Source of the DNA: Amphiscolops sp. MND2022 | Taxonomy: Eukaryota | Direction of reading: 5' to 3' | Length of the DNA: 64,000 nucleotides | Assembly: GCA_964187785.1 (NCBI GenBank) | Contig: OZ076409.1 | Span: 51,212,001-51,276,000, forward strand | Shown: in pieces, positions 20,742 through 58,500 of the stretch | Numbering within the stretch: position 1 is the first letter of the stretch | Layout of the letters: each line of letters begins with the position of its first letter | Made by a program: the position numbers and the translations under genes | The notes under the pieces: generated by a model | Database searches by the model: none | What the model saw: the letters and a program-made list of their open reading frames with translations, nothing else | What the model was told of the DNA's origin: nothing

Positions 20742-20959
20742 CACAGTTTGGGTCCATTTGACGTCTCCTGTGGTCTAATTCGACTTCGAGGTCCTCTCAA
20801 GACCCCTTCAACTTTGGTCCATTTTTGCATTTAATCCTTCTCTTTTCCTTCTATGCTTATATGAAGCTCCTGTCGGAGCGGCCGTTAGGTTCACAAGATA
20901 ACGTGTTCAAGCTGTTTCTTCTGTAGTATTAGAGGATAATCTTGCAATAAGTGGTAACA

Positions 20960-28995: not shown

Positions 28996-29399
28996 TTCGG
29001 TAGCGTTGTTTGTTCTCAGGCGGCAGGTATTCAGTTGTGTAGCTGACCGCGTAGGTTATGACGACGGCAAGTAGCAGTCGTCATATGCGTTACTTGTTTA
29101 GGCTAAATCGAGCTTTTGTTAGGCTAAGTATGACTTTGAAACGTACTTTGGTAAGGCTTGGCTGATGCGTGACTATATTACTTTGAAGCTGGAAAACGTG
29201 GCGTAATTGCAGAGCAATTACCTTTGTGATATTTATACCTTTTGAAATGACTGCCGTTAGCAGTCGTCAATTTCAGGTGAAACAATCAAGCGTGTGTAGT
29301 TGCAAAATAGAAAGAAAAGGTTTTGATCCTTTTCCTCTTTTTAGTGGTGATGTTTTGATTGTTGATAGTTCATGTAAATTTGGGAGAATTTTCAAAGGT

Positions 29400-30240: not shown

Positions 30241-30249
30241 CTTCGTTGT

Positions 30250-30955: not shown

Positions 30956-30959
30956 TTCT

Positions 30960-33900: not shown

Positions 33901-34620
33901 TTCGGGTTGAGGGTAATTTTGTGGCTGGTTAGGTCAATGATTTGGACATGGATTTGCATTTCTGTTATTTGGGACAGTGCTGGGGACACCAGTAGTTGTG
34001 TCTTCCTTTCGATTGAGGGAAAGGTTTCCACTGAGCCCTGAATTGTGCCGAGGTCCTTTTCCGCTAATACAAGTACGATTAGTTGATGGTCCGGTGGTAT
34101 CACTGTCTTCCGGAACGTTCGCAGCTCTATAATTTGGATTTTGTATCGTCCAAGTTCTGGCTTGAGTTGTAGGGTATTATCCGGAAATTCAACTATGTTG
34201 TTGGCAAGGTCGAGTGTGACTGAGTACTTCTTGAAGACTGACATGCCAATTAGGATGTTACCCATGGTGGGGAGGATCATGAAAGTCTCTTCAAATATTT
34301 TACACCCGATGAAGAAGCGACGGAGTACCTGAAGGAACAATGCTCCCGTTTGCAATTTGGACCTTGAAATACGGTGCTGGCTACTCATCTAAGAGTGCTG
34401 CTGGGTGGGCGGATAGGATTCGTCGGACTTCATTTTCTGAATTTGCATTCCCGATGGCTTCTGTATCTAGGAGGCCATGGTTTTCGTATTGACGAAATTG
34501 GAGTGGAACGTACGGCATTCTGTTCAGTTTGAGTGTAGCACTTGTTCTTCCTGTTTCCTTGTTGTGTTTAATAGTGTAAGCAGTGTGAGTAGCTTGATTT
34601 TCGTCTGTCGTCTGCATCGG
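30960..34620 (-). pseudogene. pol: Ty3/Gypsy pol relic: PR-RT-RNaseH-IN
   Basis: GLLDTEA (PR); AQRKP..LVDLRRIN, KYFCKLD, LAQGFNRS, QYVDD (RT); MWDVSEQAAGY, MTDNKAL (RH); LHDD..CQNC, CDYVSRF..DKGSSF..GMVERSH (IN). The order is Gypsy-type. Confidence 0.95.
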
Positions 34621-36843
34621 TACGTTCGCCTCCGCTTTCGTTATCGCTCATTATTTCTGATGCTAGTGAGTCATTCCTGTTCGTTTGTGATCTGGTTATT
34701 ACCATATGAGTAAAACGATGGAGCATTGAAAGTTGATTGTTAGAAGGTAGATGGAATAGTATTGAGTTATGGAATGAGGTTTTGTTGTGATTCTATAAAG
34801 CAAGATAGCAACTGAACGTAGTGGGTGCAAACATTGTACTGGCTCCTTTTGGAATTGACGTTTTCCTGCTTCTAGCGTCTTAGCACCTTAAAACCTATCG
34901 GTACGCAGCGTCATTATCATCAGGTGTTTTCATAGTACCAACCAAAGTTTTGGTAAAAGGAACGACCGCGTGTTCCGGTTGTCGTACCAACCAATTATCT
35001 AATGGGAAACCAACTACTAACGTACGCTGTAGTAGTTTAAGCACCTATTTCGCGTTTACTACTCCAGGTTTAAAGTTACGACTGCGTGATTTGGTCGTCA
35101 TGGCAACTTCATACGAATTTAATGAACTAAATACTCACATGATGGTATTTGAAAGGATGAATATGATGACTGAGTGAAAAAATGAAATGGAAATCATCGA
35201 ACTGGTGAAAAAATTTTATTGACGACCAATGATCTTGGATATACTTGCATGTAGTTTTAACTAAAGTGGAATGATGAGTTTTGAAGCTGGTACAAATATT
35301 CAATCACGACTGATTGTCGCAGTCGTGATCATATAAATATTCAATCGTAGCGAAAGTGTAAGCATCATGTTGGTTATAATTGTATTCGACGACTGATTGT
35401 TTCAGTTAGATTTACATGTGATGAGCTAACGTGGTGAACGTTACACTGGTAGATATCCACCTGACTACTGGGTAAACCGGTCGTTATTAGGTTGACAGCA
35501 CTGTTTAGTGAATAAATCATGGTAGTAATGGTATACGACGACTTGTGGTTCAATGCATTTGTTTAACTGAAATAGTTTTTGGGTTTCAATATTTTGTTTC
35601 GTGCTGTTCGAGCATGACAGCTGCAGAATCTCTTTTTCATTGATCGTAGATTATAGGGGTTGTAAGCTCTCTTTTGTTAGACTAGTTTTCAACGCTTCCG
35701 GTTTCCTAGACATTCAGCCAATAAATCAGTCATTTGGAGGTAGAACCTTTTTCAATAATCCTTATTCTCTGTTTTCAGCACTATGACTTCACATCATTGA
35801 CCTAGACTCCTCTCAGAGTTTCTGTTTTTGTCAGATTGGAAAAGAAGTTCGTTTCCGTTCCTCTTGCTAACGATTTCACTTGAACTCATTTGTAAAACAG
35901 TTACCAAACATAGATTCGTATCTTCCACATCTGACAGTAATTCAGATTGGCGAGATCGTTACTTGGCATTCTGCTTCTTACGAAAACGCATTGCAAGAAT
36001 CATTCCAAATTCCACCAAGTTTTTTGGTTGTGATATGTTTTTTACTTCAGTCTACTAGTTTTGCGACAGAAAGTAACCACTTTTGTGTAGTTTGAAAGCA
36101 ACAATGGAAAACAAATTGAAATCTTGTGGATGACGGGTAGATATAGGCGTCAGAGGAGACTGTAAGCGGAAACATCAAGCAGCATGTGTAATGGTTGGAG
36201 TTGCGGAGAAAGGTATTTACTATAGAAACAGTAGTTAGAGAGCAACTGAATGGTTGGAAATCGGAATTATTGAACGGATCGAATAATACTAAGGATGACT
36301 GTAGCAGTTTTGGAAATCATTGAGTAGTTTAAGTAAACAGTGTGTTGGCCTCGTCATTCTTTGTGCGCTTTTTGTAAATGCCGTTAAAGTAAACCATTCA
36401 TCGACAGTTGAATTGAAATTTATCACGCATTGTGGAAGGCTGTCGTTTGTATTTGTTTTTTTTGTGTTAATCCATTTGCATTAGACTATTCTGTTCTTTA
36501 TTCTTCTTTCCATTTGAAGACCAAAGGTGAGCTCATTTCGCCGGGTCGAAATAGGGTATAAGAGGTAATCCGAACTAGGGGTATACTTTCACTATCTTTA
36601 ACAACTTAAGAAGACGGGAGTTGTTGATCCCTTTTAAATGATATGTATTGGCTGGGTAGAACTGTGAGTTCTTTCGTTGATAAACTTTTGAAGTGGTGGG
36701 TAGATTGCCGTCCAATTTTGGCAATGTGGGTGATCAGCCCACACTTCCTGATGCACGGAGAGATGAGCGTTTGCAGTCGATGAAGAAGTTTGGATTTTAC
36801 TTGTTTATTCTTTTTACCGATTTGACATCTATTTGTTATGGCT
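34620..36843 (-). pseudogene. gag: Gypsy gag relic plus leader (copy 2)
   Basis: Contiguous with pol at 34620; homologous to 21105-23157. Confidence 0.68.
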
Positions 36844-37560
36844 GCATCGAAAAAGCACAGATTCTCAATAGACTTTTCTTTGATCCTGAAAATCAAAAAC
36901 TCCCTGACTTTCTATCGTAACTTCAAGAAAGTGCAGAAAAAGCATTTGAGGACAATGCAATTCAAATGATACAGAACTTACTCTCTGCCAAATCGCCCCA
37001 CACCTCAAAAAAATCATCAATCAAGCATACTTAGAAAACGGAACATATGACCATATCGTAAAACATCGAGAGAAGGAAATGAAGCTCAACGGTCAGGAAG
37101 CCGAAGAACCTTTGGCAAAAACCCAAAAGACCGATACGAAAAAAGAACGAAGTTTTGAAAAACCAAAAAAAGCAAAATGAAAAATCCAAAACCCGAACTC
37201 CCCCAACAGTACCAACAAAACCCTCAAAAGTGACCAAGGCCGTTATTGCAAAGGTGCACGTCACACTATGAGTGGCTACCTCGAACTAGACATACGGCAA
37301 AAACTTGAAGAAGATCCAAGCGCAGAAAAATGCCAAAACTGCAATACACCTGGCCATGAAGAGAATAACTGCTACTTCACTTCTGCGATAACATGAAAAA
37401 ACGTCCACTGAAGTGGAAACTCACAGAAGCTCAAAAGAAGGTCTTTGAAGCCTATAAACAAGACAGAAATCCAAATAAATCAAAAACAGAACAGCAACAA
37501 TAATCCTCTTCAAAAGATTTGAAAACGCCACTTCTTAACAAACAGAAGGCCAACTCATAG
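36844..37560 (+). pseudogene. gag: Gypsy family-B gag, C-terminal half with CCHC zinc knuckle
   Basis: FDPENQKLPDF..LQES..INQAYLENGTY; KCQNCNTPGHEENNC (C-x2-C-x4-H-x4-C). Homologous to 55270-55490 and 63870-64000. Confidence 0.82.
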
Positions 37561-37899
37561 AATACAAATTTGCAAGACGGCAGGCAGCATCATCTGGAAA
37601 CAATAAATATACAACATAAGCACTTCACTACAGAACCTGACTCAACACCCCACGAAATTACAGACTCTGACAACAACCGATTCCCACAAGAGTCACACTA
37701 CGAACTCTTGCATGATGCTTCTGATTATTATTTTTCAAACACCACACCAACAATTTCGTCGAACACCGACAACATGCCAAATATTCACCAGATAAAAACC
37801 TTTTCTTGTAATAATCAAAAACAACCCCTATTAGATGAGGACCTCTCTAATCATACACAGTCTGACCAGGACTGAAACCTGTCATTCCAGCCTCTTCTC

Positions 37900-40800
37900 G
37901 CTAACACTGAAATGAAAACGTCGTATTTACTACATGCCAATAAACTTCGAAAAACTAGCACTTGACGGACTCGATGACACAAGAGCCTTGACTAGTGCAG
38001 TATTTGAGCAAAACCCCAACAAAATCAAACTACTAGCAACTGAAGCAATCAAATACACTAGCCTACCGCCAAATTTTTAAATCTTGGTGGCCATTGAATG
38101 GTCAACAGGAAATTCCAATCGGCACGGTGTTACTAGAAAACGAACTGGCCGATTTCGTGTTTAGAGAAAACTTCATCAGCTTGAAAAACCTCTCAAACCC
38201 ACTCATTGTTCTTTGCTTTCTTCGCAAAACCAATGCAGTCTTCGATGTTACGCAAAGCACATTAACCTTGTCATACCTCGGCGTGCAACCTAAACCAGAT
38301 ACCCAAGTAGCACTACGGCAAGCATTAGCACTGTTTGCGGAAATACACACACTTTGCAACCAGGCAAAACTCTCGCCATAGCAAACAGAATGCTCGACCT
38401 GTTAGACCATGATGACACAGAAATATTCCCACTCTCACCACGATTTGAAAACCACGATAGCAATTTCATGACATCGTCACTCATAATGGTCAGCAATAAT
38501 GATATCGGCTACCAGATAATCAAATTTTCCGAACTTCCATATACAATCACCCTTGATACCCATGTAGGGGATTTCAAGATTTTGACTCCAAAACAGAGTG
38601 AAACACATCCAACCAGGGTATCCGTCCATGATAACTGTGATGATACAGCATGAAAATACCACTGAGATCTACATAATCGAACTTTTGAAAGTGTCAAGAA
38701 CTGGAAGAATTTGCAAAACTAAACCCACAAGATGATGAAACATCAAGAAAGTCATACCTCCCAAACCTCGACTGGTCTGACACAACACTCAGCCCTGTAG
38801 AACAACAACAAGTGGAAGAAAAGCTCATTTAATTTCACGACCTTCTGCCAGGCATCGTTTTGATTTTGGCACCAGTCGCGAATTCAAAGTGAAATTGACA
38901 CCCGACGACGACAGACGTGCATACAACCAAAGTATGCCAACCCCAATTAACCTTAAAGACGACCTCACAGTAGAACTCGCACTTCTACAGAAAAACGGAA
39001 TCATAACAACTATACGTTTCTCCAAATATGCAAGTCCCAGTTTTGCACAACGAAAACCTAATGGGCGCCTTCGATTCCTTGTGGATCTCAGAAAAATCAA
39101 CAATTTATTCACCGAAGTTTACATCAACCACAAGCACCCGGTAAGCACCCTATCGGATGCACTACAACATAGGGCAGGGCAAAAACGTTTCTGCAATTTA
39201 TACTGCTACCGAACAAATACACCAAATGGGGTGGCCCCTAAAGCCAACAAAGTCAAAAACTTTTTGTCAAAACTACGTTTCCGCAAATCCAAAAAAGAAC
39301 ATCAACCGTATATAGAATCCTTAAACTATTACCGCAACTACATTCCACGACTTTCTGAACGGCTCTCACCGTTCTTCGAACTCCTCAACGAAACCTCCAA
39401 ATTCTACGTACCCACAATTTTTGTAGACAGTTTCACCAACCTTAAGAAACTTTTCGAGAAATGATGCCAAATTGCCCTGAGACAACCCCCCCTAAAAGAC
39501 AAACAATTTATTGTCATGTCAGATGCAAGCTTCACAACAGCTGGATATGCTATAGTGACTGAAAATGATCCGAACCAACAACTACAATGTAAACGCAAAT
39601 ACTATGCACCCATAGCATTTCGTTCTAAACCCTTAAACCAAACAAAAACGAAAAAGTCCATTTACGCAAAAGAAATTCTTCCATACTTTTCGCAATCGTT
39701 GAGTTTGGACAACTGGTGTGGGGAAGCATTTCCCCAGTAATCGTGTTTATTGATAATAGATTAGTAACACGATTCTTCCAAGCAAAACTCATTCCTCCAG
39801 CACTCTGGCTCTGGAATGCGTGCGATTATGTCATACAGTACTATTTCCTCATTGTTCCTGTTGCTGGTTCAATAAAGACCTCAGCCGATATCCTACCGAG
39901 AACAGAAGTCAACCCCACTAAAAAACTTGAAATGAGCATGCGAAATGATATCCAAACAAAAGCTTTCAACATACAATCATCAGTCATCGTCAAAGAAGAA
40001 CGAATCTACGTCCTACCAAATGATGAATTCGATGAAAATCAACTCTGGTAAGAAAAAGAAATGCGCGGAATAGAGCTCAAATTGAAACACATAACGACCC
40101 AGAGAACAATGTCACAGCACTCTAACAATTCCATGAACCTACGTCAGGCCCGAACACTTGATCAGAATGTCCTTTCCGAGACAATGCCAGAAACAGACTT
40201 GAACAAAACAATGACATTGTCCTCAGAAACGTGAAAACATAATCAAAGAAAACCCCTTCGACGAAAACGAATTGGCCTTTCATTATAGATACCCACATTA
40301 TCTCCACAACATCACAACAATTGAAATCGAACGAGACGTTCTCACACGAAAAAACAATACCGACACAGGGATCACCTTCACATTGTCGGATCCTACTACC
40401 AGTATAACCCCTCGAAAACTTCATCCAAGTTCCTCCAACCATGCATGGTCGTCTTTCCAACCATTCTCGCATATCAAAGATGATAAAAGAAACTAGACAG
40501 AAAAATTACAACCCATTTATTGCCGAATACATCAGAACACGTGTTAGTAACTGACAAACCTGCATCCAAACAAAAAAAACTAACAATGACCTTCGTAGAA
40601 TCCAACATTTTATGCAAACACAGCTACCTTCCAACAAGAATAATCACGGACCTTGGCACCCAATTCAATGCGCAAGTTACACACGAAGTTGCAGCTGTTC
40701 TTGGAAATGAGCTCAAACATGCAGCAATGAAACACGCTCAAACAATAGGGTTCTTATAGTCATGCTTCAGTAAAAACACACCTCAAACTAGCAACAGGAT

Positions 40801-41270
40801 TTTATCTAAACAATTGGCATAAATGACTACTAATTAGCAGTGCTAAATCACAATACACCTTACTATGCATCACCTGGTTGTGAGTGGTCACAAGCGCATC
40901 TTTCGTGAGCGCATACCCATAATATACTAGACTACAGATTAGGCTACAACCCTAATCAATGATATCAGCCACAAAGTGACGTGGCAGAAGAGGTAAAAAG
41001 AAGAATAAAAGTATTTCTAGACCAAACGAAAAGGAACAAAATGCAACCTTATCTCAAATACAAATCCTATTATGATAGGAAAGCAAAAGCAATTCCACTA
41101 GAAACAAAGGGCTACTGTTGTATCTTCAACCCAAAAGCAGAGACACAAGCAACGAAAAAACTTTTTCGGAGTTTGTGATAGCACGATCCGTATGAAACTG
41201 AAACGTTCTTCCTAACAAAAATTATAACATTAGAAGGCTTGGAGTTTACAAAACACAACTATTGCAACAA
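37900..41270 (+). pseudogene. pol: Ty3/Gypsy pol relic (PR-RT-RNaseH-IN); RT lacks the QG/YxDD core
   Basis: DGLDDTRALTSA (PR); SKYASPSFAQRKPNGRLRFLVDLRKIN, then a jump from RFCNLYCY to TPNGVAP (core deletion near 39205); MSDASFTTAGYA (RH); TDLGTQF..KHAQTIG..YYDRKAK (IN). Confidence 0.9.
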
Positions 41271-41689
41271 CACGACCTTTTGACCTGCTTTTGGCTCAGT
41301 ACACCTCTGCATACCAAAGGATGCCCTAATAGGAGGAGGCCCGGGTGAACAGGAACTGGTGCTGCTCGAACGACTCCTGCTGGCTGACTCAACATCTTAG
41401 GAAAGCACAAATGTTCAATAGTGATGATAGCTTTTTTATAGGCAGACTCAAATTTAACCTGCAGGGATTGCCTCCGTGAAATGCTTTTTTTGAAGAACTT
41501 TCAGGCAGAAAAACCCCGATCACGAAGCAAGTCTTTCCCTCTCCCCCTCGGAGCGCGCGAGTTACATATGTTTTTACTGTCTCCTCATCTACTTCTAGCT
41601 CAGAATAGGAATCACGAAAGGAACTGGCATCTTGACTAGTGGAAACAAGCAAAGACTAGCAAGTTTGAATAACTGATGCAACTCAGTAT

Positions 41690-42270
41690 GATTATGTAAT
41701 TCATATTGTGTGAATAAAAAGAGGAGCAAGTCGTCCGTCGCTATCACCCCGCAACATCAGAATTTGGCCACGAGAGATCGATACTGGCTTACAATTTGTT
41801 GTTTTATCGCTAGAAGAATTCCAACCATTCTGAACGAATTGGGTGGTCAACCGTTCGACGCCGGAAATGTAATTCTCCTGCTTAGCCTCCAAACTATCAG
41901 CAGAGTCAAAGCAAGACAAGCCGCGAAGTAAATTGGATGTGACGACTTTGTGCTTTAGTAAGATCCCGCAAAAAGTATTTTGCCGGTCGCCGCACTTTGT
42001 TGGATAACACCAAGCGATGGAAGTCTGTTTTGAGGACGTTTTCGTTGGGCGTTTTGAATGGCAGGTCTGTCCGCCTTAGATCAATTGTCAGGTATTGGTC
42101 CCAATCTGATATATCACCCAGATACTTATCTTGGAGGACACTTTGCAGTTGAGAATATACAAATACTGCGATTTGGTTATATAAACGGAATCCAATACGA
42201 AACAGCCTTTGAACTCCAGAGAATGCGGAATCGTCTGAAACCCCACAGAAAAAATCAAAAGCCATCATAA
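41690..42270 (+). pseudogene. Extra ORF after integrase, SGNH/GDSL-hydrolase-like (degenerate)
   Basis: Track ORFs 41710-41931 and 42058-42270 share a frame, with four stops between them. YVIHIV* (block I-like, adjacent frame), NVILLLSLQT (block III-like), YHPDTYLGGHF (D..H block V-like). Confidence 0.4.
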
Positions 42271-42446: not shown

Positions 42447-42705
42447 CATACGCCATTGTAGGGAACTCATTTTCTGACTATGCATCATCATGTGGATGTC
42501 AGCATAGTGTAAACACGTCACTATGTGGAATTCAATTTCTGACTGTGCGTCACCATGCGGATCTCAGCATAGTGTATTTACGTTACAATGCGGAAGTCAA
42601 TTCCTGATTGGGCATCATCATGCGGATCTTGGTATGGTGTATATACGCCACGATACGGAATTCAGATTTCAACTATCGTCACAATGCGGAACATGGAATG
42701 ACGTA
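42447..42705 (+). repeat. Array A: ~8 units at 32-33 bp period (65-bp higher-order repeat), core (A/G)TGCGTCACNATGCGGA-like
   Basis: atgcatcatcatgtgga, acacgtcactatgtgga, gtgcgtcaccatgcgga, ttacgttacaatgcgga, gggcatcatcatgcgga, atacgccacgatacgga, tatcgtcacaatgcgga. Confidence 0.82.
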
Positions 42706-42999
42706 CAGGCGTAATTATGCTGAAATCTGGAACGTGTGAATATTGTTCTGTGTTCAAAATTCATTTGAAAGACACTTGAAATTTGTAGAAATTTGACAGA
42801 AAGCTTTTTTAGATCACTTCTGGCATTCATGTGGAAAGATGTGAAACGATGATATTGCGTAATCTTGAGAAAATCCACCAATACATCAGGGAATAATAGA
42901 GAAGAAACATATTACTAACAGTGATCAATCACACATTAACTGACGGAAAGACTGGCCAGCTAAGCCGTGTTCAGGCGGAACAATTCGTCCATTCTACTG

Positions 43000-44902
43000 G
43001 GTTAAAGCTGTAGAATAACTATTCACAAATATAATGACAAGAAGGGAAATTATCTCTCTCATATGGAACCGGAAAACTGGCAATCGTGACTGCTTGATCA
43101 AATCCTCAAGAATGTGTTAATAAGGTTTCAATAAAGTTGGAAGCCTCTCGCAGTGAATAATTCAGGCTGAGTAGGCACTGAAGAAATTTAAATGAAGTTA
43201 TAGTAGCAACTGTGATATTAAAACAGAAACACAAGAAAGCTGTGTTACCTTGCGAAGCTCGCGAAATGCATCTAGCCAGTCTTTCTCTAAAGCAGTGCGT
43301 AATTTCATGAGCGAGAAGTCGAGGGCTGTCCAAAAATTTTAAGGTTCAAGAACCTTTGCAAACGGGATAGCTAAACATCTTCAATAAGGCTATCTCGAAT
43401 AAAGCTACATGAAGCACTAGGTTGTCGTTGTCCAGAGACTGAGAGCAAGCTTCGAATTTAGCATTGCAGACTAATGCACGATGGCGCATATTTAAATAAT
43501 CTAATGAAAGAAGAAATGACGGCAAGAGTTTCCTTGGCTGCCAAAAGTGTTCTGGGCCCAGAGCCGAGGCAAATCTGGTAAGATACATTTCCTGACCAAA
43601 AGTTTGCATACACGTAGTTGTCAGTAGTTGTGTGCTTGTCATCCAAAAAAAGGAGTCGGATATAGAGATTCAAGCGACGCAGTATTTTAGCAACTCTCTG
43701 AACATCTATATGACCATAGACTAAAACAGAGTATGGGTACGAACCACTAATATCACAATCAGAGATTGAAAACGAGAGAAAAAGGATACTTGCAAATGAA
43801 CGAGGATGACTTCAGCTGTAATTCCTTGACTCAGAAATCTTAAGGAGCGGAGTGACATCTCATCCCAGATACCGCTGAGGCAGTCGTCGATGTGACCCCC
43901 GTTGCGGAGGCTATGCTCCAAGAAGCTGATCTGGATGAAAATATACTCGCTGGGGCTTGTAGGTGAACTAAGATGCGGCAACCTCTCTTGACTCACCAGC
44001 AACACTCAAGAGTCTAGTTGGCGAGGAAAAGGAAAAATCTTTTTGCTATCCTTTTTGCTTCTTGGAGAGCAATTTGGTTCGGTGCCTCATTGTGGGAAAG
44101 TAATTCGAGGACGCCCCGACTCATGGGCGAAAGTTTCATTCCGACAGACACGAGACAACCACTTATAAAGCGTTTTTGTCCGGTCAAGTGTCCCGGTTGC
44201 TGAGAACTAAAGTACGGGGTGTTTCTTTAGCTGTGAAGTTTTCAATGAGTATTTTGGTTTTTGACGTTGCCCTTGGGAATATCGATGTCATCACCACTAG
44301 AACACAATCTATGTTCCTCTACTGTGCTCTCCGGAATTTGTTCGCGAGTAGAACTGACGAGGGGACGATTTAGGGAAAGAGGTGGATCAATCACTACATT
44401 TAAAAAATGTGCTCACAGATTGTACCATCGTTGGATAACAAAGATCGTGGAATCCTGCTCAAGACGTTAGAATTTGGCGCGTAACAGTAACATGTTGTCT
44501 ACTCCCTCCTTCAACTGTGTCGCTAGTTTCAACGGATAGCTGATCCTTCCTGGCCCCATCATCTTCCATGGATCTCAATTGTACATTTAACACAACAACT
44601 TGAGCATCATCTCATGTGTCCCCTGCTTCCATTGTGCAGTGCAGGAACGAAGTGAATCTAGTCAACAAAGATCGACTCTCTGTGACTTGCAGATCAGGTC
44701 CGGAGCTTGATTCCCTCGGAGCGTTTTCGTTGGAAGGGCCGCTTACCATCATTGAGGAGAAATCTCGAAGCGAAGAAATCGTATCGCAAATGGGAAGCTC
44801 TTCCGTTTGGTCTCCGGAATTGCAAATTACTCTTGCAGCGGGAAATACATCTACTGATTGAATGCCATAGCGGTGAATCTGAGTAGGTGAAGTAATTTTC
44901 AA
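43000..44902 (-). pseudogene. Long antisense coding relic of unknown family in the Gypsy 3' region
   Basis: Track ORFs 44612-44902, 43721-44005, 43346-43642 and 43106-43333 share one minus frame. An overlapping ORF at 43458-43673 and other frames also read protein-like. Visibly more GC-rich than the flanks. Confidence 0.5.
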
Positions 44903-45389
44903 AGGGAAGTACGTTGTCTTTGGCGACTGATGCCGTGTTTTCTCAGTTAGCTCAGTTTCAGCAAAAACAAATAAACTGCTGCCATAAAAGAGCGGAGTTT
45001 TAAACTATTGAACTAAAGTGAGAAGAGGACTAAAACCAGATACGTTCGAAAATTGTGTAAAATTCGAAAGGTGAAAATTATACAGTCTGACTATTTATAT
45101 CCAATAAAATATGTATGATAGATACTACAAGACGAATTGGCGGAGAAACAACTAATTTTGATCAAGGCGGTATGAAAGGCGTGACGTAATTATAACAAGG
45201 CAAAGGAGCAAATATTTTGTGCTACGAGAAAACGATGAAAACCATATTCAAATGTGATTGATCAATCAAATTGTCAATCATTTCTGCCAGAATGATTGAT
45301 TACGTGATTGGCTTTTACAAAAGTGTGACAATATGATGTGAGAAGCCAGCAAGCATTGAATGACTAGCTTTAAATTTGTAGAATGAAAA

Positions 45390-45626
45390 ATGCGACAGTA
45401 TGCGGAATCACAACTATGCATATGCGGCAGTATGCGGAGTTACCATATGCGGCAGTATGCGGAATTGCAATAACAGACATGCGGCAAAACGCGGAACTGT
45501 TCTAATGCATATGCCGACATATGCGGGACTGCAGCAAAGCCTATGCGGCAGCTTGCGGATTTAATATATGGCTGTATGCGGTAGCATACGGATCGGTTAC
45601 AATACAAATGTGACAAAATGCGGATT
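45390..45626 (+). repeat. Array B: 8 copies of a 17-bp ATGCGGCAGTATGCGGA-like repeat separated by unique 15-16 bp spacers (one of 8 bp)
   Basis: Unit starts 45390, 45422, 45447, 45479, 45511, 45543, 45576, 45608 (periods 32,25,32,32,32,33,32). Confidence 0.88.
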
Positions 45627-46109
45627 GCTACCCACAGGTATTGTGCATCACGCAGATTCAACAAAATACATTGACAACGGTGAAGAATGAAGATTGCAGG
45701 ACGGCTATCACCGTGTACTATCTTTTTATGTAAAATATGGACTGGTAGAAACAAATGCCATGAATTATGCCAGTTCATTTGGATCACCGAAACAGTTGTG
45801 TACTATTGGATGATGACCCTACTAGAGAACAATAGATGTACAATTTGAAGTAGAAGTGTGTGATTAGATGACACCCATACCAGTGAAGTGGGAGATCGAT
45901 GTGTCTAATACACTGCACAGAAAATTACGCACATTTTTATTAAGGACAATTTCAGAATTATTTCCAAAAAGAAGTATTCTAAAGTATCTTAAAAATATGG
46001 ATTGAGCATGTAATATTATTTGCTTGAAATTGAAACTTTTCATTAGAAATATGTGAATGGAACGTTTGTGTGAAAGTTAGTCATTCAGAGTTTGTAACAC
46101 ACTGGAATA

Positions 46110-46429: not shown

Positions 46430-47399
46430 TTAAAAACAAACGAAGAACCTCTTCAACCAACCTGAATAATCTCCAGTTTAATGTGGACGATGACTCCTTT
46501 TAATCTCCAATTTCTCCTGAAGTGGTCGACATTGAGAGCTCCTGAAGTGATTCTGAGAGCTCCTGAAGCTCCAGAGATCTCCTGAAGTGGGATTTTATGG
46601 GTAAGCAGGAAATGTCCCCTAAATTGAAGAAACGTTCAGGATAAAGTCAGTCAGAACAAATATGATGACAGCATTCATGGGGTCTACAGTAAAAACACTG
46701 TGCCCAGTTACTAATAATAGTGTAGCGACAGATGACATAATAGATACAGCGGGAAAGCAATTGGAACACGATTTAATGGAGCTGGTAAACGAAATACAAG
46801 ACACCCGAACATTTTTGCCAAGCTCCTTCATAGACAACGAACTTGAGGAAACCAAAACATCTTCTCCGAACCTGCAAGAGGAATCATGTACGACACTGAA
46901 CATTTATGGGCGTCCAATTGCTGCTATATTTCCGACAGCGAGAGAAATATACAGGCAAAGTGGAGATTTGTTGGGACCCATCCCCACATATGCACCAATA
47001 TTTCGACGACCTCTAGTCCTAATGAAAACGAATTTGTGGTGGAATCCCACAGCAGAGTTAGCTCAGAGAGCAGATATTTTGAAGAGCCTGAATCGCTTCT
47101 GCAAATGCCCCCGATACAGCCCGCGCATGTCCTAAGGGTCATGACTAACGTAAGCCCTACGGAATACTAGCCCCCTCTGAAAGTAGACAGATTAAATGAT
47201 CTGGATAATCCCGCAGTCGCCGAATTAGAAGAAACGTGGGGACTCAACCTAAGAGAAACAGACGAGATCTACACGTTGACTGGACGAGGAAGCAAATTCA
47301 CATCAACTAAAATAGTGAGGTGCCGAAAACAACCTGTGACAATGAATAAAAAAATCCCTCACCGCTACAGACTGCCCTAGTTTCAAGCGAGAGGGGCCC
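46430..47399 (+). mobile_element. 3' internal region of a family-A Gypsy element ending in a purine-rich tract before the LTR
   Basis: (GAG)CTCCTGAAG repeats at 46510-46590, degenerate ORFs 46662-47170, and AAGCGAGAGGGG immediately before the LTR TG at 47400. Confidence 0.55.
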
Positions 47400-48019
47400 T
47401 GTCGCGACCCGCTCCCGGTCGTGATATTATTTGCTGCTCTGGGGTAGGGATTTGGCAGAAGTCGCGGCCATGGTTACTGCAAGTACTTTTAAACTGTTAA
47501 TAATACTTAGTTCTACTTACAGTACAGCTGAATTAAAATTGTGACTAACGTCCGAACATGGAGTATAACGTAAGCGTTACGGAATAATTTAGGAATGATT
47601 TTTCCTTGCTAAGGAATTTCCGCCTTAATGTTTTAACACGTGATCGTTTTCCTACTTGCGGTTGCGCATTCTGAGATACCAATCTAAATATTAAACTAAG
47701 ACATTTTCCAAAATAGGGATAATTCCTTTCTTGTCCACACTAAAAAGTAACGCTAAAATGACATTTAATTCAACAATCCCAACAGAATTTATACAATCTA
47801 AATAAAAAGAACATACAAATAATATAATGGAATTGTTTTCCAATACTGAAACAGTTGTTAACATTCACTCACATCACAGGTAAGTGATTTAGGCAGATAT
47901 TCACAAAGATATGACAACGTCACTCAACTAAGCAAGCAACTGGTGTTTCTATTTTTACGGACGAATAGCGTCGTCCACTTACTGAATTATCTGAGCTCAA
48001 ACCAATAGAATCACGCTCG

Positions 48020-48034
48020 GTTGCCCTTAGCAAC
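48020..48034. promoter_or_regulatory. RFX X-box-like motif GTTGCCCTTAGCAAC with adjacent CCAAT (also 56826-56840)
   Basis: Fits GTNRCC-N0-3-RGYAAC. CCAAT at 48002-48006. Confidence 0.45.
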
Positions 48035-48685
48035 GCTATTCTAACTAAGAGAAAAGAATGAAATCGCCTACGCTCTCCGTTTTTTCTCTCCGGCAGCCTC
48101 CGCAGCTCAGCCATACCTAATATTAATACGTACGGAAAGACTACGGAGTGAATTGTAAGATTGTAATTCACCGCTGCTCAGCTATACCTAACCTTGATAC
48201 TTACGGGACGATTACGTAGCACATTGTAAATTCACAGCTAAGGTGTAATAAATCAGGATAATTTCTTAGGAATTCCTTCACCTAATACGACGTATTCGTT
48301 GGTTTAAGAATTTGGTTTCCCATAAGTAGAAAGCTGTACTGTAAGGAAGAATATGTAAGCATCTTTGAATGAGTGATTATTTAAAGGGTATTGACGATAA
48401 AGGCTCCTAAATCCCCATCCATCTTACGTTGCAAACGGATTGTCTTAAAATGATCATAACCAAATATGCTGCTGTACATGTGAATTATAATTTGGCGTTA
48501 GGACCGAGATTGCAACGTAAAACTGCCTTCATTCTATGCAATTATTGATGGGTCTATTTTAGGTTTGTATTTTATTGTCACGAACTAATGGATGGTCTCC
48601 GTCAACATTGAATTGTGTTTTGTTCTGATAGCTCAATTTCATTTTGTTCTGTGTTTCATAACAACAATAATAATAATATTAAGTA

Positions 48686-51600
48686 ATCGCAATGCCAAAC
48701 TACACTCACTATTACACTGCGCAGGACAAAGAACACCGCCAAGTAAATAGCAGTGCCAAGTTACATCTTTAGTATCGAGATATTAAGGGGGTTGTTTGGT
48801 ATGTCTAGATTGCTTTCGAAGGGGCTATTTGTCCTTGGGAACAACCCGTAAAACAGTTTTCCGCAAGCCATTTAATTCCCTGCAATAGGGGATAGTTCTA
48901 CTCGTTCTATTGATAATGATTTGATGCCATACAACCTTTCATTAAAAATCAAGAATGAAAACATTGATGCATTCAACTAAACTTATTGTATTGACTTCAA
49001 CGAAAGAACGTGTTTTTGCAGCGGTTCAGTAGATTTTTAACTTCTCAAAGAATTCACATTTACTCCTTCGTAAATCATTGTATTCATAGACGACTTGTGG
49101 ATTATCAATTTTATCAAGAAACTTTCATCACAGTTGAACCTCACTGCTTTTCGTTTAAACAAAATTTTAAAACTTTTTAAATGAACTCTACCTCACTGTA
49201 TTTAATAAATAAGAAGACCTCCTCTTATTGCATTCTTTACAAGAATTCAAAACTAAGTTTTTTTATTCGAAACAGAAAGCTGTTGAGTTCTCTTGACGAA
49301 TGCAGAAATCAGACACATGGTATGCTCACAAATGCCTCTGAAAAGCTTTTGGTTATTTTAGATCTTTTTTTCTCATCGAGAAAAAAAGTTAATATGAATA
49401 ATAAACCTATATTAAAGATCTTTTCTGTTAATCACCCCTTCCACAGTAAGCGCTAAAATTTCATTTCACCCCATCAAAGTATCAACGATGATTTTCAGTT
49501 GAAGTTAGAATTATAGACTACTTCAGTTTGATTGGTTGTTACTACTCATTCAATTATACATTCACTCGACCGCTTATCTGGGGGGATTGAATCGGTAGGG
49601 CAAATTAACACAAAATAACCATAATTTACTTTGAATCAATTTATTCCTATTAGAAAATCCAAGTTGAACTAAAACCAAACTAGAGCAAAATTCAGTCTCA
49701 TTATCATTGGCGAATGCTGCGGCCAATCAAATTTGAGCAAACTTTGACACAGAAGTACCTATTAAATTGTAACAATTTCCCCATCTCCTTCCCCCATTCC
49801 ACCAAACCCCCTCACCCAACACTGTACAACATTAGATTTTGATTAACAATAAACACTTCTTGTATATATTAGAGGAAATTTTTGATCTTGTTGCGTTCAC
49901 CTAGGGATGGTCTAGAATATTATTTTGACTAAATTATTTTGAAGCTCTTATTCAAGATTATTTTTTGTGAAATTTTGCAGATTATTAGGACCACTCTGTT
50001 CTTTCTTTCCTCCCAAGCTGTGGCAACGGGCTGTTTGCAAATGAGAGACATGTTTGTTTTTATTTGACTAGAATCAATTTAAAACAAAGTTTCGCTTTGA
50101 CTGGACGTATTGGAATAAACTAGGTAGTAATTTGTCCTTTCATATCAAACAAAGGAGTTATTTGTCCTTCGGCTTTTAATGCGGTGGTGTTTTGTCCTCT
50201 GATGGTAAATATTGGAGTTACTTGTCCTTTGCTATTTCAAAGTAGGGGGTTATTTGTCCGCTGCTAATGAATATGCTTGAAATCCTCTGCTATAATTCTC
50301 ACTAGCTGAATGCCACTAAAAACCGAATTGGCAATGCATCTATGTCATTAGAAGTTAACGTAAATTTTTTGAAACCTTTTAAATATACATGCTTTCCCAA
50401 GAGTTGCCTTGCCTTTTCAAGCGAGTGTGCAAAAAGTCTTGAACAAATTTCTCTTAGAGTTTTCAGATGACCGGTAAAGTGATTGGCACTATAGGGAACT
50501 GATTGTTTTAAAGAAAAGAGTTCCTGCTGCCTCTACAACTTACTACAAAACTCATACCAAAATATTGAATTCGGATCTTTACTGTTGATCCCCCAAACAG
50601 TAAGTGGTGTTGTTTTTGTACAAAATTCATGAACACAACTCTTCACAGAAACTATACAAGTTCAGATACAGCTCTAGAAAAGATATATTTTGGACGTTTG
50701 TCACGCGTATTTAGGAATTGATATATGTTTGACACGCGTAATCTCAAGTTAGTGGTAATCATATTTACATATATACATCCTTCTAAAACCACAAAGATCT
50801 TTATTCATACTGCCGCGTGACCAACGTCAAAAAAACCCTCGATCAGTTTCAGACATTTAAAAACCTAGCTAATATTTTAAAAAACTATATCGGAACAGCT
50901 TTACAGTTTTTTCAGAAAACAAAAGTGGAAAACAGTAAATCCAATTTAGATTTATTCACAGATAAAGTATATTTTAATTAATTGTACAAAATTATGATAA
51001 AGAAACAAAACAAATTATTTTTACACTCCATTGAAAAATATTTCACGGAATTTTTTCCAAAATGTGGTCTCGTGTATGTGTGGCGGGGTTGGTTTAAAAG
51101 TGTGAAATCATTGGCAAATGCGGCAGCTAATCAAATTTGGGCATGTCATTTTTCATCAAGTACCAGCAAGTTTTGTTTCTTTTAAAAAACTGAACAGTTA
51201 CTGCAATCAATGACAAATAAAATGGTGCCTAACATGTTGTGTATCGATTCGATGTACCCTCAAAATTGAGCTTTATTGAAAACGTTATACTGAATGAAAA
51301 TGCTTTTAAGAAACTAGTCTACGAAAAATTTACTTCATTAGTTAGATTTATCCGCTGTTATTGCAGGCGATTTATTAAAGTTGGGAAACATCTTTGAATT
51401 TTACCAGAATTTAATTTTAAACAACCTTGTTAAAAATTACAAAAGAACATGTCATTTCGCATTTTGATTTCGGGGTGGGGGAGTCTTTATTTCTTATTAT
51501 CCCCTGAGTTACACATTGTTACGAAACAAACCCCCCAAACACGGAAGAACATTTTATTCTAGCAGAATATTCGACTCATATGGAACATGAACACCAAAGA

Positions 51601-52232
51601 AAATGTTCTTTCGTGTTGGAAGCAATACAAAACAAGATTTATCTGGGAGAAATAAAAATATTGCATTTTAGGTTACAATTTTCGCGTAACAATGTATACC
51701 TGTTGCCATTGGCATGCCTGGCGTGAATACCATTGCTGCCATTGGTGTTTGAAAATGCTATGTGAACTTTCACTTTGAACCCAAGTGTATAGATTTGCGG
51801 AGGAGGAGGATCCTGAGGAGGAGTAATTTATCATCTAATTTGTCGTAGGCAGAAAATTGCAAGCAGTATAAATACTGTACCACATTCAATTTCTTATGCA
51901 TCAATTTTGTGTGCGGTAATTGGCTTGACTGGCTTAATTAACGACAAGGCGCCATAATAATGCAATAATATTCAGGTTGTGAATTGTCCTTGAGATTATC
52001 TGAAAAAGGGTTATTTGATATTGGGGAAAAGACCTTAATATTTAAAAAACAACGCGATCGTTTTCGTTCAAAGTTTGGCAAATGTCTTTCTCAAGGGTTT
52101 TCAACTGCTTCCCTTTCGTACGAACCGTGGAAGTGGAGATTCAGGGTCATGCCAAACTACACCCCAAATAACCCCTCAGCTGGTGGTATTTGGTATGTGT
52201 TAAAATCCAACTGGGGTTATTTGGCACTGCGT
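48686..52232. mobile_element. Nested degenerate DNA element(s) with short imperfect TIR (CGCAGTGCCAAA-like), inserted in an (AAT)n tract (copy at ~57492-60766)
   Basis: Left cgcaatgccaaac (and gcagtgccaag at 48750); right ttatttggcactgcg. LTR homology resumes on both sides. Confidence 0.42.
50123..50262 (+). repeat. Phased array: five GG(A/G)GTTATTTGTCC-like motifs at 30,30,30,32-bp spacing (copy at 58931-59068)
   Basis: (T/C)TTGTCC at 50131, 50161, 50191, 50221 and 50253, with unrelated intervening sequence. Confidence 0.8.
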
Positions 52233-52689
52233 TATATAATAATAATAAAAAGAATAATAATAATAATAATAATAAATAGGAGAAATTGGAATGTGCTATT
52301 CCAGCACTATTTGTTCCTTCCTCGATATCTGAATTTTTTTGCTTTCAGAATTTGTGACTCCGCTTTAGTTTCGCCGCCATTTTTGAGTGTCATACTTTTT
52401 ACTTCAAATTCCAACTCCACAATTTGGGAGTTGACTAATTGCTAATGAAATAATCTGAATCACTGGGGAATTTTTGTGAGCAAACCCGATCTTTAATGAT
52501 ACCTAGGTATTTTTAGGTGAGGAACAAATGATGCTGGAAAGGTATAAATGTGTTGAACTCACATTGAAAATTAGTTAATCTTTAGCTGTTCTGTACTTAA
52601 CTGTTCCGTTTCTCCATCGTAAAAAACCGAAAATTTCTTCCAAGAATTCACTTCTTTCCGAGGACTCTATTATCCAACCTAAAAACGAC

Positions 52690-53060
52690 AACTAGAAGTC
52701 AGAAGAGAAAGGCTGTAGCTGAGTTTGTTTCTGGAGAGTTTGAGGCTTCTGTAGCTGATAATAAACAACCCGAAAACCTAGTAGCAGGTCCCTGTAAAAC
52801 TCTTAGAGTTGAGCCAGAAAATTTGGGCGAAATAAAAACGTCGATGAGAAACGAAATCATGTCCGATTTAACAAAAACATTAGCTGAAAACCAAGAGGAA
52901 ATGCTAAAACTCATAGCTCCTTTGAATAGAAAACTCCCAGTTCACCTGAATGAGCGAGATTCTGATTCTGAGTTTGAAAACATCTCCGTAGCCAGAACGT
53001 CATAACCTGTAAAATCAAACACGGCTGTATAAAATACTACTCCGGTAAACAGTCGTAACA
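52690..53060 (+). pseudogene. gag: gag N-terminal segment inside the LTR (copy at 61365-61737)
   Basis: TTRSQKRKAVAEFVSGE..EMLKLIAPL..TPVNSRN; the frame runs to the LTR terminus. Confidence 0.7.
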
Positions 53061-53559
53061 ACGTCATCCAACGTTTCTTTGAATAACGATTCTATATGAA
53101 TAGGCATATATACGTATACCGCTTATGCGTAATTACTCATATTTCTTGAAATTCCTGGACATTTGTAGAGTCATGTAACTTCGAATTTGTATGCTATGAA
53201 TAGATTTACATCATTTGACGTAATTCTCATTAAACTTAAATGGAAAAAAGTTTTCTTCAAAAAAAGACTGTCATGAAAAATGTTTAATATTTAATAACAA
53301 GTGCAGTTTTTGATTTTTTTCACTTTTGAAGTAATTCTCACCCAAAATAGTTGTCTGATAACCCTAACGCAATCTTTTTTCTCTACTAACCCTACCGCAA
53401 TAACCCTACCGCAATAACCCTACCGCAAAACATTTCATTTCTTTGTCAACATTTTCACTTCCTTTTTATGCTGGAATTTACAATCGGATTGAATAAATTC
53501 ATATTTTCCTAACAAGCACAAGGATTTCGCGCAAGGTTTTCGCATGTTTTCGCGCAAGA

Positions 53560-55490
53560 ACAATGGGAAATAGAAGAAATGGAGATCAGGGCGGTTAGAA
53601 ACACCGTCCCCTGAGATGGAGGTTAACAGAATTCAAACGGAAACATCGAATACAGGTAATATAACTTTGACTAGTGGTATTTCTTAAAATACGGAGGACA
53701 TAGGTAGATGTATCTCAGAATCTCAATTGAACGAAGCCAGTTTGGTCAGCAATGAGATACAGGTTTGGAACCAAATCTTAGAAAAGAACAAAGATAGAAT
53801 TGCAAAGATGCAAGAGGGAATCGAAAACAAGTTTGAATCGATACTGAAGGAACTTATGTCTAGTAAAAATGTGTCCACCATAACTAACCCCAAATCAGAA
53901 ATCAATGATACCCATAATCCACAGCCATCGGGATCAAAGGTCAATACGTCTACTGAACTTCACGCAACTAGTAATATACTCTTAGACTCAGATGAAGATG
54001 ATCATCCTCTCAGAGTTTCAGATATAGCGAGTTGAGAAACCCTGCAAACCGTTTTGGCAAAAAGGGTTAAATGTAGATAGTTTCGGAAGAAGACACCGAG
54101 GAGGATGATTATCACAGATCAAAAACAACAAAATTGTCTTTCAAGTTGAAAATGTTTGGGAAGTTTTGTAGACGACTGCTAGTCCATATTTAGTTAGATA
54201 GTGGCGCTCCTGGCTGGTGACAGGGGATGTTGTTTCCTGCTGGGTGATCGTAACGAGTAACATCGGAAGCAGTCGCATGCGGCACTCAAAAGGGAAAATT
54301 TTCAAGTTTGCCCATTGAATTTAAAATATTCTGAAAATAATCTATTGGGGAACAGTTTTCTAGAAAAACATTATTCAGAAGACGAACATCTTTTTGGTAG
54401 AACACAAACGTTCTTAAATATGGAACTAATTTGATTACCTCTACCATGAAGAAGAATGTCAAAAACCTAGACTCCAATGACAAAACATTCTTACAATTGA
54501 CCAAAAGACCTCTGCTCATGAATATTGATTTCTTGTCAGAAGAACAATACAGCTAGCCAGAATGTTGTTTGATGAGAAGGAGGCTTTCGATAACATTTAA
54601 TAAACGTTTGCGACGTCGAAATTTCTGGAAAATATGATGGTGGGTTTAAAATGTAATGTAAACATAGATTCATATGAAGATGATCATTCTCTCAGAGCTT
54701 CAGATAAGAACGAGTTGAGACACCTTGTCAAACCGTTTTGCCAAAATAGGTTGAAATTAGACGAAACAATAGTTTCAGAAGAAGACTCCGCGGAGGAGAG
54801 TATATTACATGGTGATAGGTCCCAATCTACAACTCCAAAGACAGGGCTCCCAAAACCCTCAGTCTTTAAATGACACAACAGGATCCCACGCTGACAAAGT
54901 ACGTCAACACTGACAAGAAACCCACTTGATTCAGTCAACATCTCATTAGCAATAGAAAAACTGGCAAACAAAAACCCTCAACAATTTCTTTTTCACTCGA
55001 AAATTACACAAACTTTCAATGGAGAAAACGTGAAAAACGAGAAAGCTGAATGTTCCGAAGCTTTACTCCTTACAACACTTCGAATGCAACGAAACTTAAC
55101 TAAGGAAGTGAAAACTAACCACTTTCATGCACAAACTTTTTTGATTTTTCTGATATACAATAGATATGGATAATATGTTTTCGGTAATATTCGGTACATT
55201 CAAAAATATACAAAGAACTTTGGAAAACAGCCTCACAGTTTTTCGCAGGAAATACGTAAAACCGGAGTCTAGTGCATCGGTTAAGCACAGATTCTCAATG
55301 AACTTTTCTTTGATCCTGAAAATCAAAAAATCCCTGACTTTGTAAAGGAACTTCAAGAAAGTGAAGTAAAAGTGTTTGGGGACAATGCAATTCAAATGAT
55401 ACAGAACTTAGTCTATGCCAAAATGCGCCCACTTCTCAAAAAGTCCATCAATCAAGCATACTTAGAAAATGGAACATATGACCATATCGA
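53560..55490 (+). pseudogene. gag: Family-B Gypsy LTR-end/gag relics with PBS-like TGG at 54810 (copy at 62200-64000)
   Basis: SLVSNEIQVWNQILE..; two LTR-like ends (..GATTATCACA at 54116; ..TATTACA at 54809 followed by TGGTGA); then LAIEKLANK..TTLRMQ..NHFHA..RRKYVKPES..FDPENQK. Confidence 0.72.
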
Positions 55491-55577: not shown

Positions 55578-58500
55578 CACGATTTAATGGAGCTGGTAAA
55601 CGAAATACAAGACACCCGAACATTTTTGCCAAGCTCCTTCATAGACAACGGACTTGAGGAAACCGAAACATCTTCTCCGAACCTGCAAGAGGAATCATGA
55701 ACGACACTGAACATTTATGGGCGTCCAATTGCTGCTATATTGCCGACAGCGAGAGAAATATACAGGCAAAGTGGAGATTCTTTGAGACCCATCCCCACAT
55801 ATCCACCAATATTTCGATGACCTCTAGTCCTAATGAAAACGAATTTGTGGTGGAATTCCACGGTAGAGTTAGCTCAGAGAGCAGATATTTTGAAGAGCCT
55901 GAATCGCCTCTGCAAATGCCCCCGATACAGCTCGCGCATGTCCTAAGTGTCATGACTAACGTAAACCCTACGGAATACTAGCCCCCTCTGAAAGTAGAAA
56001 GATTAAATGATCTGGATAATCCCGCAGTCGCCGAATTAGAAGAAACGTGGGGACTCAACCTAAGAGAAACAGACGCGATCTACACGTTGACTGGACGAAG
56101 AAGCAAATTCACATTATATAAAATAGTGAGGTGCTGAAAACAACCTGTGACAATAAATAAAGAAATCCCTCACTGCTACAGACTGCCATAGTTTCAAGCG
56201 AGAGGTCGCGACCCGCTCCCGGTCGTGATATTATTTGCTGCTCTGGGGTGGAGGGATTTGGCAGAAGTCGCGGCCATGGTTACTGCAAGTACTTTTAAAC
56301 TGTTAATAATACTTAGTTCTACTTACAGTACAGCTGAATTAAAATTGTAACTAACGTCCGAACATGGAGTATAACGTAAGAGTTACGGAATAATTTAGGA
56401 ATGATTTTTCCTTGCTAAGAAACTTCAGTCATAATGTTTTAACACGTGATCGTTTTCCCACTTGCGGTTGCGCATTCTGAGATACCAATCTAAATATTAA
56501 AATAGGACATTTTGCAAAATAGGGATAATTCCTTTCTTGTCCACACTAAAAAGTAACGCTAAAATGACATTTAATTCCACAATCCCAACGGAATTTATAC
56601 AATCTAAATAAAAAGAACATACAAATAATATAATGGAATTGTTTTCCAATACTGAAACAGTTGTTAACATTCACTTACATCACAGGTAAGTGATTTAGGC
56701 AGATATTCACAAAGATATGACAACGTCACTCAACTAAGCAAGCAACTGGTGTTTCTATTTTTACGGACGAATAGCGTCGTCCACTTACTGATTTATCTGA
56801 GCTCAAACCAATAGAATCACGCTCGGTTGCCCTTAGCAACGCTATTCTAACTAAGAGAAAAGAATGAAATCGCCTACACTCTCCGTTTTTTCTCTCCGGC
56901 AGCCTCCGCAGCTCAGCCATACCTAATATTAATACGTACGGAAAGACTACGGAGTGAATTGTAAGATTGTAATTTACCGCTGCTCAGCTATACCTAACCT
57001 TGATACTTACGGGACGATTATGTAGCACATTGTAAATTCACAGCTAAGGTGTAATAAATCAGGATAATTTCTTAGGAATTCCTCTATCTAATACGACGTA
57101 TTCGTTGGTTTAAGAATTTGGTTTCCCATATGTAGAAAGCTGTACTGTAAAGGAGAATATGTAAGCATCTTTGAATGAGTGATGATTTAAAGGGTACTGA
57201 CGATAAAGGCTCCTAAATCCCCATCCATCTTACGTTGCAAACGGCTTGTCCTAAAATGATCATAACCAAATATGCTGTTGTACATGTGAATTATAATTTG
57301 GCATTAGGACCGAGATTGCAACGTAAAACTGCCTTCATTCTATGCTATTATTGATGGGTTTATTTTAAGTTTGTATTTTATTGTCACGAACTAACGGATG
57401 GTCTCCGTCAACAATGAATTGCGCTTTGTTCTGATAGCTCAACTTCATTTTGTTCTGTGTTTCATAACAACAATAATAAAAATATTAGGTAATCGCAAAG
57501 CCAATCTACACTCACTATTACACTGCGCAGGACAAAGAACACGGTCAAGTAAATAGCAGTGCCAAGTTAAATCTTTAGTATCGAGATAATAAGGGGGTTG
57601 TTTGGTATGTGTAGATTGCTTTCGAAGGGGCTATTTGTCCTTGGGAATAACCCGTAAAACAGTTTTCCGCGAGCCATTTAATTCCCTGCAATAGGGAATA
57701 GTTCTACTCGTGCTATTGAAAATGATTTGATGCCATACAACCTTTCTTATAAAAATCATGAATGAAAACATTGATGCATTCAAACAAACTTATTCTATTG
57801 ACTTCAACGAAAGAACGTGTTTTTGCAGCGGTTCAGTAGATTTTTAATTTCTCAAAGAATTCACATTTACTCCTTCGTAAATCATTGTATTCATAGACGA
57901 CTTGTGGATTATCAATTTTATCAAGAAGAAACTTTCATCACAGTTGAACATCACTGCTGTTCATTCAAACAAACTTTTAAAACTTTTTAAATGAACTCTA
58001 CCTCACTGTTTTTAATGAATAAGAAGACCTCCTCTTATTGTATTCTTTACAAGATTTCAAAACTATGTTTTTTTATTCGAAACAGAAAGCTGTTGAGTTC
58101 TCATGACGAATGCAGAAATCAGACACATGGTAAGCTCACAAAAGCCTCTAAAAAGCTTTTGGTTATTTTAGGTCTTTTTTTCTCAACGAGAAAAAAAGTT
58201 AATTCGAAAAATAAACTTATATTAAAGATTTTTCTGTTAATCACCCCTCCCACAGTGAGCGCTAAAATTTCATTTCACCCCATCAAAGTATCAACGATGA
58301 TTTTCATTTGAAGTTAGAAGTATAGACTACTTCAGTTTGATTGGTTGCTACTATTCATTCAATTATACATTCACTCGACCGCTTAACTGGGGGGATTGAA
58401 TCGGTAGGGCCAATTAACACAAAATAACCATAATTTACTTTGAATCAATTTATTCCTATTAGAAAATCCAAGTTGAATTAAAACTAAACTAGAGCAAAAT

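Follow-up and report, generated by a model that had tools for sequence, protein, structure and literature searches.

Phased motif arrays in an Amphiscolops Ty3/Gypsy retrotransposon family and a candidate hAT-derived binding protein encoded by the element

Analysis of a 64,000-nucleotide stretch of the Amphiscolops sp. MND2022 genome (hereafter the window) revealed an array of eight 17-bp cores (array B, positions 45390–45624, + strand) lying between the antisense spliced gene and the sense ORF3 of a decayed Ty3/Gypsy retrotransposon. From the constraint on their sequence, array B and its companion arrays in the same element family are very probably clusters of a protein-binding motif. The binder that we favor is the protein, predicted to be hAT-derived, that the element itself encodes antisense, and the probability that tandem-amplified array B binds this protein is put at about 0.5, by analogy with known transposase systems.

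Array B and its host element

The cores of array B start at 45390, 45422, 45447, 45479, 45511, 45543, 45576, and 45608, with periods of 32, 25, 32, 32, 32, 33, and 32 bp, including a single 25-bp unit. An earlier note on this DNA had described eight 17-bp dyads and seven listed spacers recurring every 32 bp. The eight cores and seven spacers were all found in place and far above shuffle level, with nine core matches (one overlapping) compared to a mean of 0.19 and a maximum of 3 in 1000 dinucleotide shuffles. The 32-bp recurrence applied to five of the seven periods, the others being 25 and 33 bp, and "dyad" proved to be a misnomer, since each core consists of two direct half-sites of 6–7 bp, 10 bp apart, rather than an inverted pair. 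The cores of array B showed 77% pairwise identity. When the 1.07-Gb genome was searched, the degenerate core gave 2307 exact matches, compared to one for a reversed control, and array B used as a query was found at no fewer than 43 places (40 scored of 210 candidates). A 115-codon frame over the array on the minus strand (45440–45787) had no Pfam match and was taken as chance.

Ten 20-kb neighborhoods of array matches were read, six of which contained LTR pairs of 1.2–1.7 kb with 93–99% identity. Paired LTRs with TG...CA ends, a TGG primer site, and a purine tract were present in the relatives, and the element layout was LTR, gag-pol, antisense spliced gene, array B, sense ORF3, and LTR. The Ty3/Gypsy order of gag, protease, RT, RNase H, and integrase was found by Pfam in two relatives and by tblastn onto the window, where the decayed gag-pol (gag end, protease, RT, RNase H, and integrase) occupies 36867–41079 on the + strand, as located by tblastn with an open relative and by the Pfam matches of relatives. 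The window copy is old, with exons broken by stops and frameshifts and its 5' part missing, and it showed no close copy among the 40 scored of 244 candidates, the best long matches reaching 70–73%. Comparison with the LTR ends of relatives placed a putative 3' LTR start after the purine tract at 47400–47500 (+ strand); the LTR is interrupted further on, and we infer its boundary because only 53563–54011 aligned to a relative's LTR.

In two related copies (L031:1553-2176 and L032:5466-6644), the gag frame begins in the LTR, and approximately 200 open codons of the LTR 3' part run into gag, so that the gag start is carried by both LTRs. The minus strand of the window carries another LTR element at 21109–36755 (direct repeats 85–92% identical, pol at 29856–34545), which abuts the array-bearing element and truncates its gag. 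The segments 46767–55399 and 55578–64000 form a tandem duplication of approximately 8.8 kb with 93–99% identity, which includes a piece of ORF3, an interrupted LTR, and a gag start. Long inverted repeats (84–88%), about 4.4–7.1 kb apart, occupy 13446–20742, a region that is probably a DNA transposon family, and a 58-bp tandem unit found there occurs again at 48109–48237 and 56915–57043.

The distribution of arrays was assessed in 40 copies of the same clade (clade 1), which were picked from 150 zinc-finger-exon matches across the identity range, blind to the motif, and represent 20 subfamilies. Arrays were present in the last intron of the antisense gene (array A) in 40/40 copies, in the divergent intergenic region at the place of array B in 40/40, and in the LTR in 39/40; three coding control windows contained an array in 0/40 copies each. 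In the window, array A lies at 42448–42723 (+ strand) and has roughly nine units belonging to this core family, arranged as 32/33-bp units and 65-bp pairs. Array A was located within the last intron in all 19 testable subfamilies, and nearly all clade-1 sites were on the sense strand. In L042:3875-5866 (and also in L023), array A is fused to array B and the intervening exons 1–3 of the antisense gene are gone, a structure expected from recombination between the arrays. The ORFs next to an array-bearing piece in L049-L050 resemble, by eye, those of a Polinton.

Constraint on the core in clade 1

Across the 20 subfamilies, the mean four-fold-site identity was 0.29 and the amino-acid identity 0.72, with synonymous sites saturated. 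Columns of the repeat unit were scored using the second half-site as the only anchor, leaving the first ten columns unanchored. These unanchored core columns were 72–99% invariant in array B and 62–99% invariant in array A across the 20 subfamilies, compared to 31–66% for spacer columns under the same anchoring; the spacer columns set against the 72–99% core columns were 34–66% invariant. Over 187 of the 190 saturated subfamily pairs, the value for the unanchored half-site plus linker was 0.74, that for the spacer 0.50, and that for the shuffled spacer 0.30, and 317 of 346 periods measured 32 or 33 bp. The core is under strong constraint, and the spacers drift faster. The spacers nevertheless retain some similarity and are not free, because they exceed the shuffled value (0.50 compared to 0.30). 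The selection on a phased core with free spacer sequence that the earlier note had proposed is thus borne out for the core and the period, which are held while the spacers drift, but not for the freedom of the spacers.

The antisense gene, ORF3, and the sister clades

Four coding exons of the antisense gene were traced, all of them broken in the window copy and all on the minus strand. The zinc-finger part of exon 1 lies at 43856–44269 (Atlas lead zf-C2H2_12/zf-BED, 0.80), and the exon reaches approximately 45040 by DNA similarity. Exon 2, with an RNase H-like fold, lies at 43246–43720 and is broken by stops and frameshifts; it was modeled from open relatives, and its best match was the Hermes transposase. 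The short exon 3 (43051–43177) is followed by a helical last exon (41420–42235) that resembles the hAT insertion and C-terminal region, for which the fold search ranked Hermes first. Splice donors were conserved in 20/20, 19/20, and 18/19 subfamilies, and splice acceptors in 16/20, 18/19, and 16/20.

Exon 1 showed a conserved CxxC...H pattern, with Atlas leads for zf-C2H2_12 and zf-BED of 0.78–0.80 and no Pfam match. The predicted fold of exon 2 (pLDDT 71) aligned with residues 153–264 of Hermes (Z 6.3, rmsd 3.6 over 103 aligned residues, Foldseek E 0.011), a weak match, with retroviral integrases scoring equally to within 1 Z, and the last exon aligned, also weakly, with residues 242–609 (Z 5.2, rmsd 8.5, 196 aligned), with no Foldseek match and an uninformative Atlas result. 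Hermes was the top match for both folded exons, in collinear order, although the scores are weak. Pfam gave no family for the accessory ORFs, the 68-member alignment, or 20 distant relatives, and PDB profile searches gave nothing significant. No invariant Asp was found at the strand ends of exon 2, where the catalytic residues would be expected from Hermes; the DDE triad of an active hAT transposase was accordingly absent there, and because exon 2 has no invariant Asp, the antisense protein is predicted to be inactive. In these models, the antisense product resembles a hAT transposase that has lost catalysis and carries a BED-like finger.

The 1.5-kb intergenic region is alignable mainly at the array, at a block adjacent to it, and at a short stretch before ORF3. 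The block (45175–45320, no strand assigned) is conserved and non-coding, aligning at 77–80% between flanks that do not align. Its GGCGTG and CCAAT-like words occurred in 38–40/40 clade-1 and 18–20/20 clade-2 loci, and we infer a putative divergent promoter at this position. The ORF3 remnant (46456–47006, + strand) has an acidic, proline-rich N-terminus and no Pfam family, and its relatives end in a CxxC domain. The C-terminus of ORF3 was conserved in 39/40, 20/20, and 19/20 loci of the three motif-bearing clades and in 13/20 distant loci. In the window (46456–47400) and its relatives, this CxxC domain, which was found in 91/100 loci, has a coding sequence that runs into the 3' LTR.

Three further groups of 20 loci each were drawn from 104, 116, and 108 matches. 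Clade 2 had no array in its 20 loci; a single related 10-bp direct pair was found in the last intron in 17/20 loci and, reversed, in the LTR region in 7/20. At the array B position, 17/20 clade-2 loci (L121-L140) carried a CTCF-like word, compared to 0/40 clade-1 loci. Clade 3 had arrays at the same three places, built from alternating inverted half-sites 20 bp apart with a period of 39/40 bp. In the last intron of L146, L148, and L153, such inverted half-sites in 39/40-bp units could fold into hairpins with one fixed mismatch. The number of half-sites per locus was 24.2, 13.3, and 43.9 in clades 1, 2, and 3, respectively, and 7.2 in the distant clades, where 6.6 were expected; per 10 kb, the three clades had 24, 13, and 44, compared to an expectation of approximately 7. 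The distant clades have a different finger, and their finger gene is still open; a motif search covering 18/20 of their loci gave weak enrichments and no array at the three positions. Upstream of the antisense gene, three loci of the most distant subgroup (L173, L174, and L177) showed small clusters of a CRE-like word at intervals of 50–64 bp.

A quick tree of 79 of the 100 loci, in which clade 1 was reduced to 20 representatives and one clade-3 row was too short, placed clades 1–3 on one branch. The presence of the motif is a single event on this tree and therefore neither proves finger–motif co-evolution nor counts as independent evidence. The finger helix differs between clade 1 and clades 2–3, and the half-site is nearly unchanged. 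Metagenome scans for array loci beyond this genome yielded none that was confirmed.

Candidate binders and related systems

The occurrence of sites in both orientations, their spacings near multiples of 10 bp, and the unfolded state of the clade-1 arrays point to a double-stranded DNA site, and a constrained double-stranded motif with 10-bp phasing in turn suggests cooperative protein binding. The antisense protein, which the earlier note had named as a possible binder, seems to us the best lead. This protein would retain two features of a hAT transposase, the BED-type finger and the oligomer scaffold, and would recognize the array clusters in the way that a transposase recognizes subterminal repeats. 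Recruited by the arrays, it would come to sit on the LTR, the putative divergent promoter, and its own intron, where it may activate or shield the element's promoters and may exert feedback on its own gene. More tentatively, and at somewhat below even odds, an LTR retrotransposon lineage may have adopted a DNA-transposon recognition system, consisting of a disarmed hAT transposase and phased target repeats, as a private transcription-factor circuit, with the half-site re-amplified into other geometries in sister clades. Several points weigh against binding by the antisense protein: the fold matches are weak, the spacers are not free, the distant clades retain the open finger gene without a comparable array, the finger helix shifts between clade 1 and clades 2–3 while the motif barely does, and ORF3 is present wherever the motif is, which makes its product an alternative candidate. 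A VANC-like role in demethylation is doubtful because CpG is barely depleted (0.82–0.92).

Alternatively, the arrays may be homotypic clusters recognized by a transcription factor or an insulator protein of the host, acting as an enhancer or a boundary in the manner of the Su(Hw) array in Drosophila gypsy, while the antisense protein does something else; we regard this as unlikely, though the strongest alternative. Selection on the core would look no different with a host factor, the neighboring block has CCAAT-like words, and the half-site is stable though the finger helix changes. The CTCF-like word at the clade-2 B position argues that host sites are used in that clade, and clade 3 often has the Runx-like TGCGGT (122/247). 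The earlier note had pointed to partial matches with GCM and Runx sites. In the clade-1 arrays A and B, the G that would complete a GCM site was present in 7/532 sites, so that GCM is disfavored, and the Runx-type T was present in 39/532; Runx is a partial fit for clade 3 and a poor one for clade 1. An optimal GCM site has three G (PMC8859918), and the gypsy insulator consists of 8 or 12 copies that bind Su(Hw) (PMC3022720). A host factor is further disfavored by the position of one array inside an intron of the antisense gene and by the freely changing geometry with a short half-site, which resembles hAT subterminal repeats.

It is improbable that the binder is the product of ORF3, which resembles a transactivator in combining an acidic N-terminus with a CxxC domain. 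ORF3 directly follows array B, and its C-terminus is conserved throughout the motif-bearing clades at the frequencies given above, but Pfam assigns the product to no known DNA-binding family, and ORF3 is also found in distant loci (13/20) that lack the motif.

The 32/33-bp unit was born by tandem duplication, and the spacers are diverged tandem copies. Spacer lengths in the window array ranged from 8 to 16 bp, and the five 15-bp spacers showed 48% pairwise identity, compared to 27% when shuffled. When six window spacers (the 8-bp spacer being excluded) were compared with spacers of related copies, four were above shuffles (p ≤ 0.01) and two were not; against a different spacer pool, 3/7 were above shuffle level. 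An identical spacer occurred twice within one array in 19/29 related loci, so the spacers are not unique, contrary to the earlier note, and two spacers at least 85% alike were found within the array in 21/39 protein-selected copies (1/40 yielding no spacers). Younger copies had plain 32/33-bp or alternating 65-bp repeats. An ordinary neutral minisatellite, in which core conservation would reflect ascertainment and homogenization between arrays, accords with these tandem duplicates and with the fusion of arrays A and B in one copy, which implies that arrays recombine. However, the copies were selected by a protein anchor, the non-anchor half-site is 72–99% conserved where synonymous sites are random, the period is fixed, and the half-site persists through three differing repeat geometries. 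Divergence is also uneven along the unit: the spacers do align as tandem copies, but not at the divergence of the cores that the earlier note had associated with a minisatellite, since they diverge much faster (0.50 compared to 0.74). The neutral reading is therefore largely refuted and very unlikely.

An RNA-level signal, either a structure or a protein site for packaging, splicing, or export, is highly improbable. The sense-strand bias of clade-1 sites would suit it, as would the strong folding of clade-3 arrays (z −9 to −15), but that folding arises because the half-sites are laid out inverted, seven clade-1 B arrays did not fold as RNA (sense z −2.4 to +0.5), and in clade 2 the strand of the pair changes from one place to another. 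The repeat-spacer appearance of the single decayed window copy superficially suggests a CRISPR-like memory of acquired spacers, but this reading is refuted because the short spacers repeat inside arrays and are homologous to one another and to those of other copies, their best matches being spacers of the same element family (15 bp is too short for a foreign-DNA search).

The predicted binding of the arrays by the element's own antisense protein has its closest parallels in plant DNA transposons, with which the elements share dense, family-specific, tandem-formed motif clusters in non-coding parts, as in VANC and TnpA systems. In the Arabidopsis VANDAL elements, the short motifs that VANC targets have multiplied through tandem-repeat formation; they lie within introns of element genes and in upstream regions, and they vary between subfamilies (PMC5735166). 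However, VANDAL is a DNA transposon for which VANC binding has been shown, with demethylation as its effect (PMC5735166), whereas the present elements are LTR retrotransposons with a hAT-like candidate protein, barely depleted CpG, and predicted binding. Copies in which motifs are densely clustered are activated by the transposase-derived TnpA, and the TnpA/Spm system shares with ours a transposase-derived non-catalytic protein (predicted here) and dense clusters of its own family (bioRxiv 10.64898/2026.08.24.746577). It differs in comprising plant CACTA DNA transposons with terminal motifs and a helix-turn-helix binding domain, and the main text of that paper does not mention retrotransposons (bioRxiv 10.64898/2026.08.24.746577).

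The BED domains of Hermes bind short, phased subterminal repeats cooperatively, and Hermes and other hAT elements resemble the present family in having short repeated sites in both orientations (PMC10368747). The cargo protein here folds most like Hermes. Phase-sensitive cooperative binding by BED fingers is a feature of Hermes (PMC10368747) and is predicted here by analogy. Unlike in Hermes and hAT elements, no terminal inverted repeats or excision role were seen here, the sites lie in regular tandem units inside an LTR element, and the motif differs. Among plant Gypsy elements, Retand (Tat) has a long pol-to-3' LTR region that contains tandem arrays as well as antisense ORFs, which encode a transposase-named domain predicted to bind DNA; arrays and ORFs of this kind are known from Gypsy elements and are described as having no known function (PMC11963269). 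Retand differs in carrying a TRP28 domain instead of a spliced hAT-like gene and in its family-specific repeats, for which the consulted portion of that report gives no conserved core (PMC11963269). The Drosophila gypsy insulator, with its 8–12 copies of a protein-binding motif in a Gypsy element, is a single array bound by a host zinc-finger protein (PMC3022720), whereas three arrays and a candidate element-encoded binder are found here.

A non-exhaustive literature search returned no description of the motif or of a hAT-derived regulator or circuit in an LTR element. Because the selected core and the named candidate binder share one element, a single protein domain and a single short oligo suffice to test the question of binding. 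Should the element's hAT-derived protein prove to be the binder, sequence-specific regulation by a self-encoded protein would no longer be confined to plant DNA transposons but would include LTR retrotransposons. The more than 2300 exact sites would then constitute a genome-wide network open to a hAT-derived protein, and the family would represent an animal-type retrotransposon counterpart of the plant VANC/TnpA systems.
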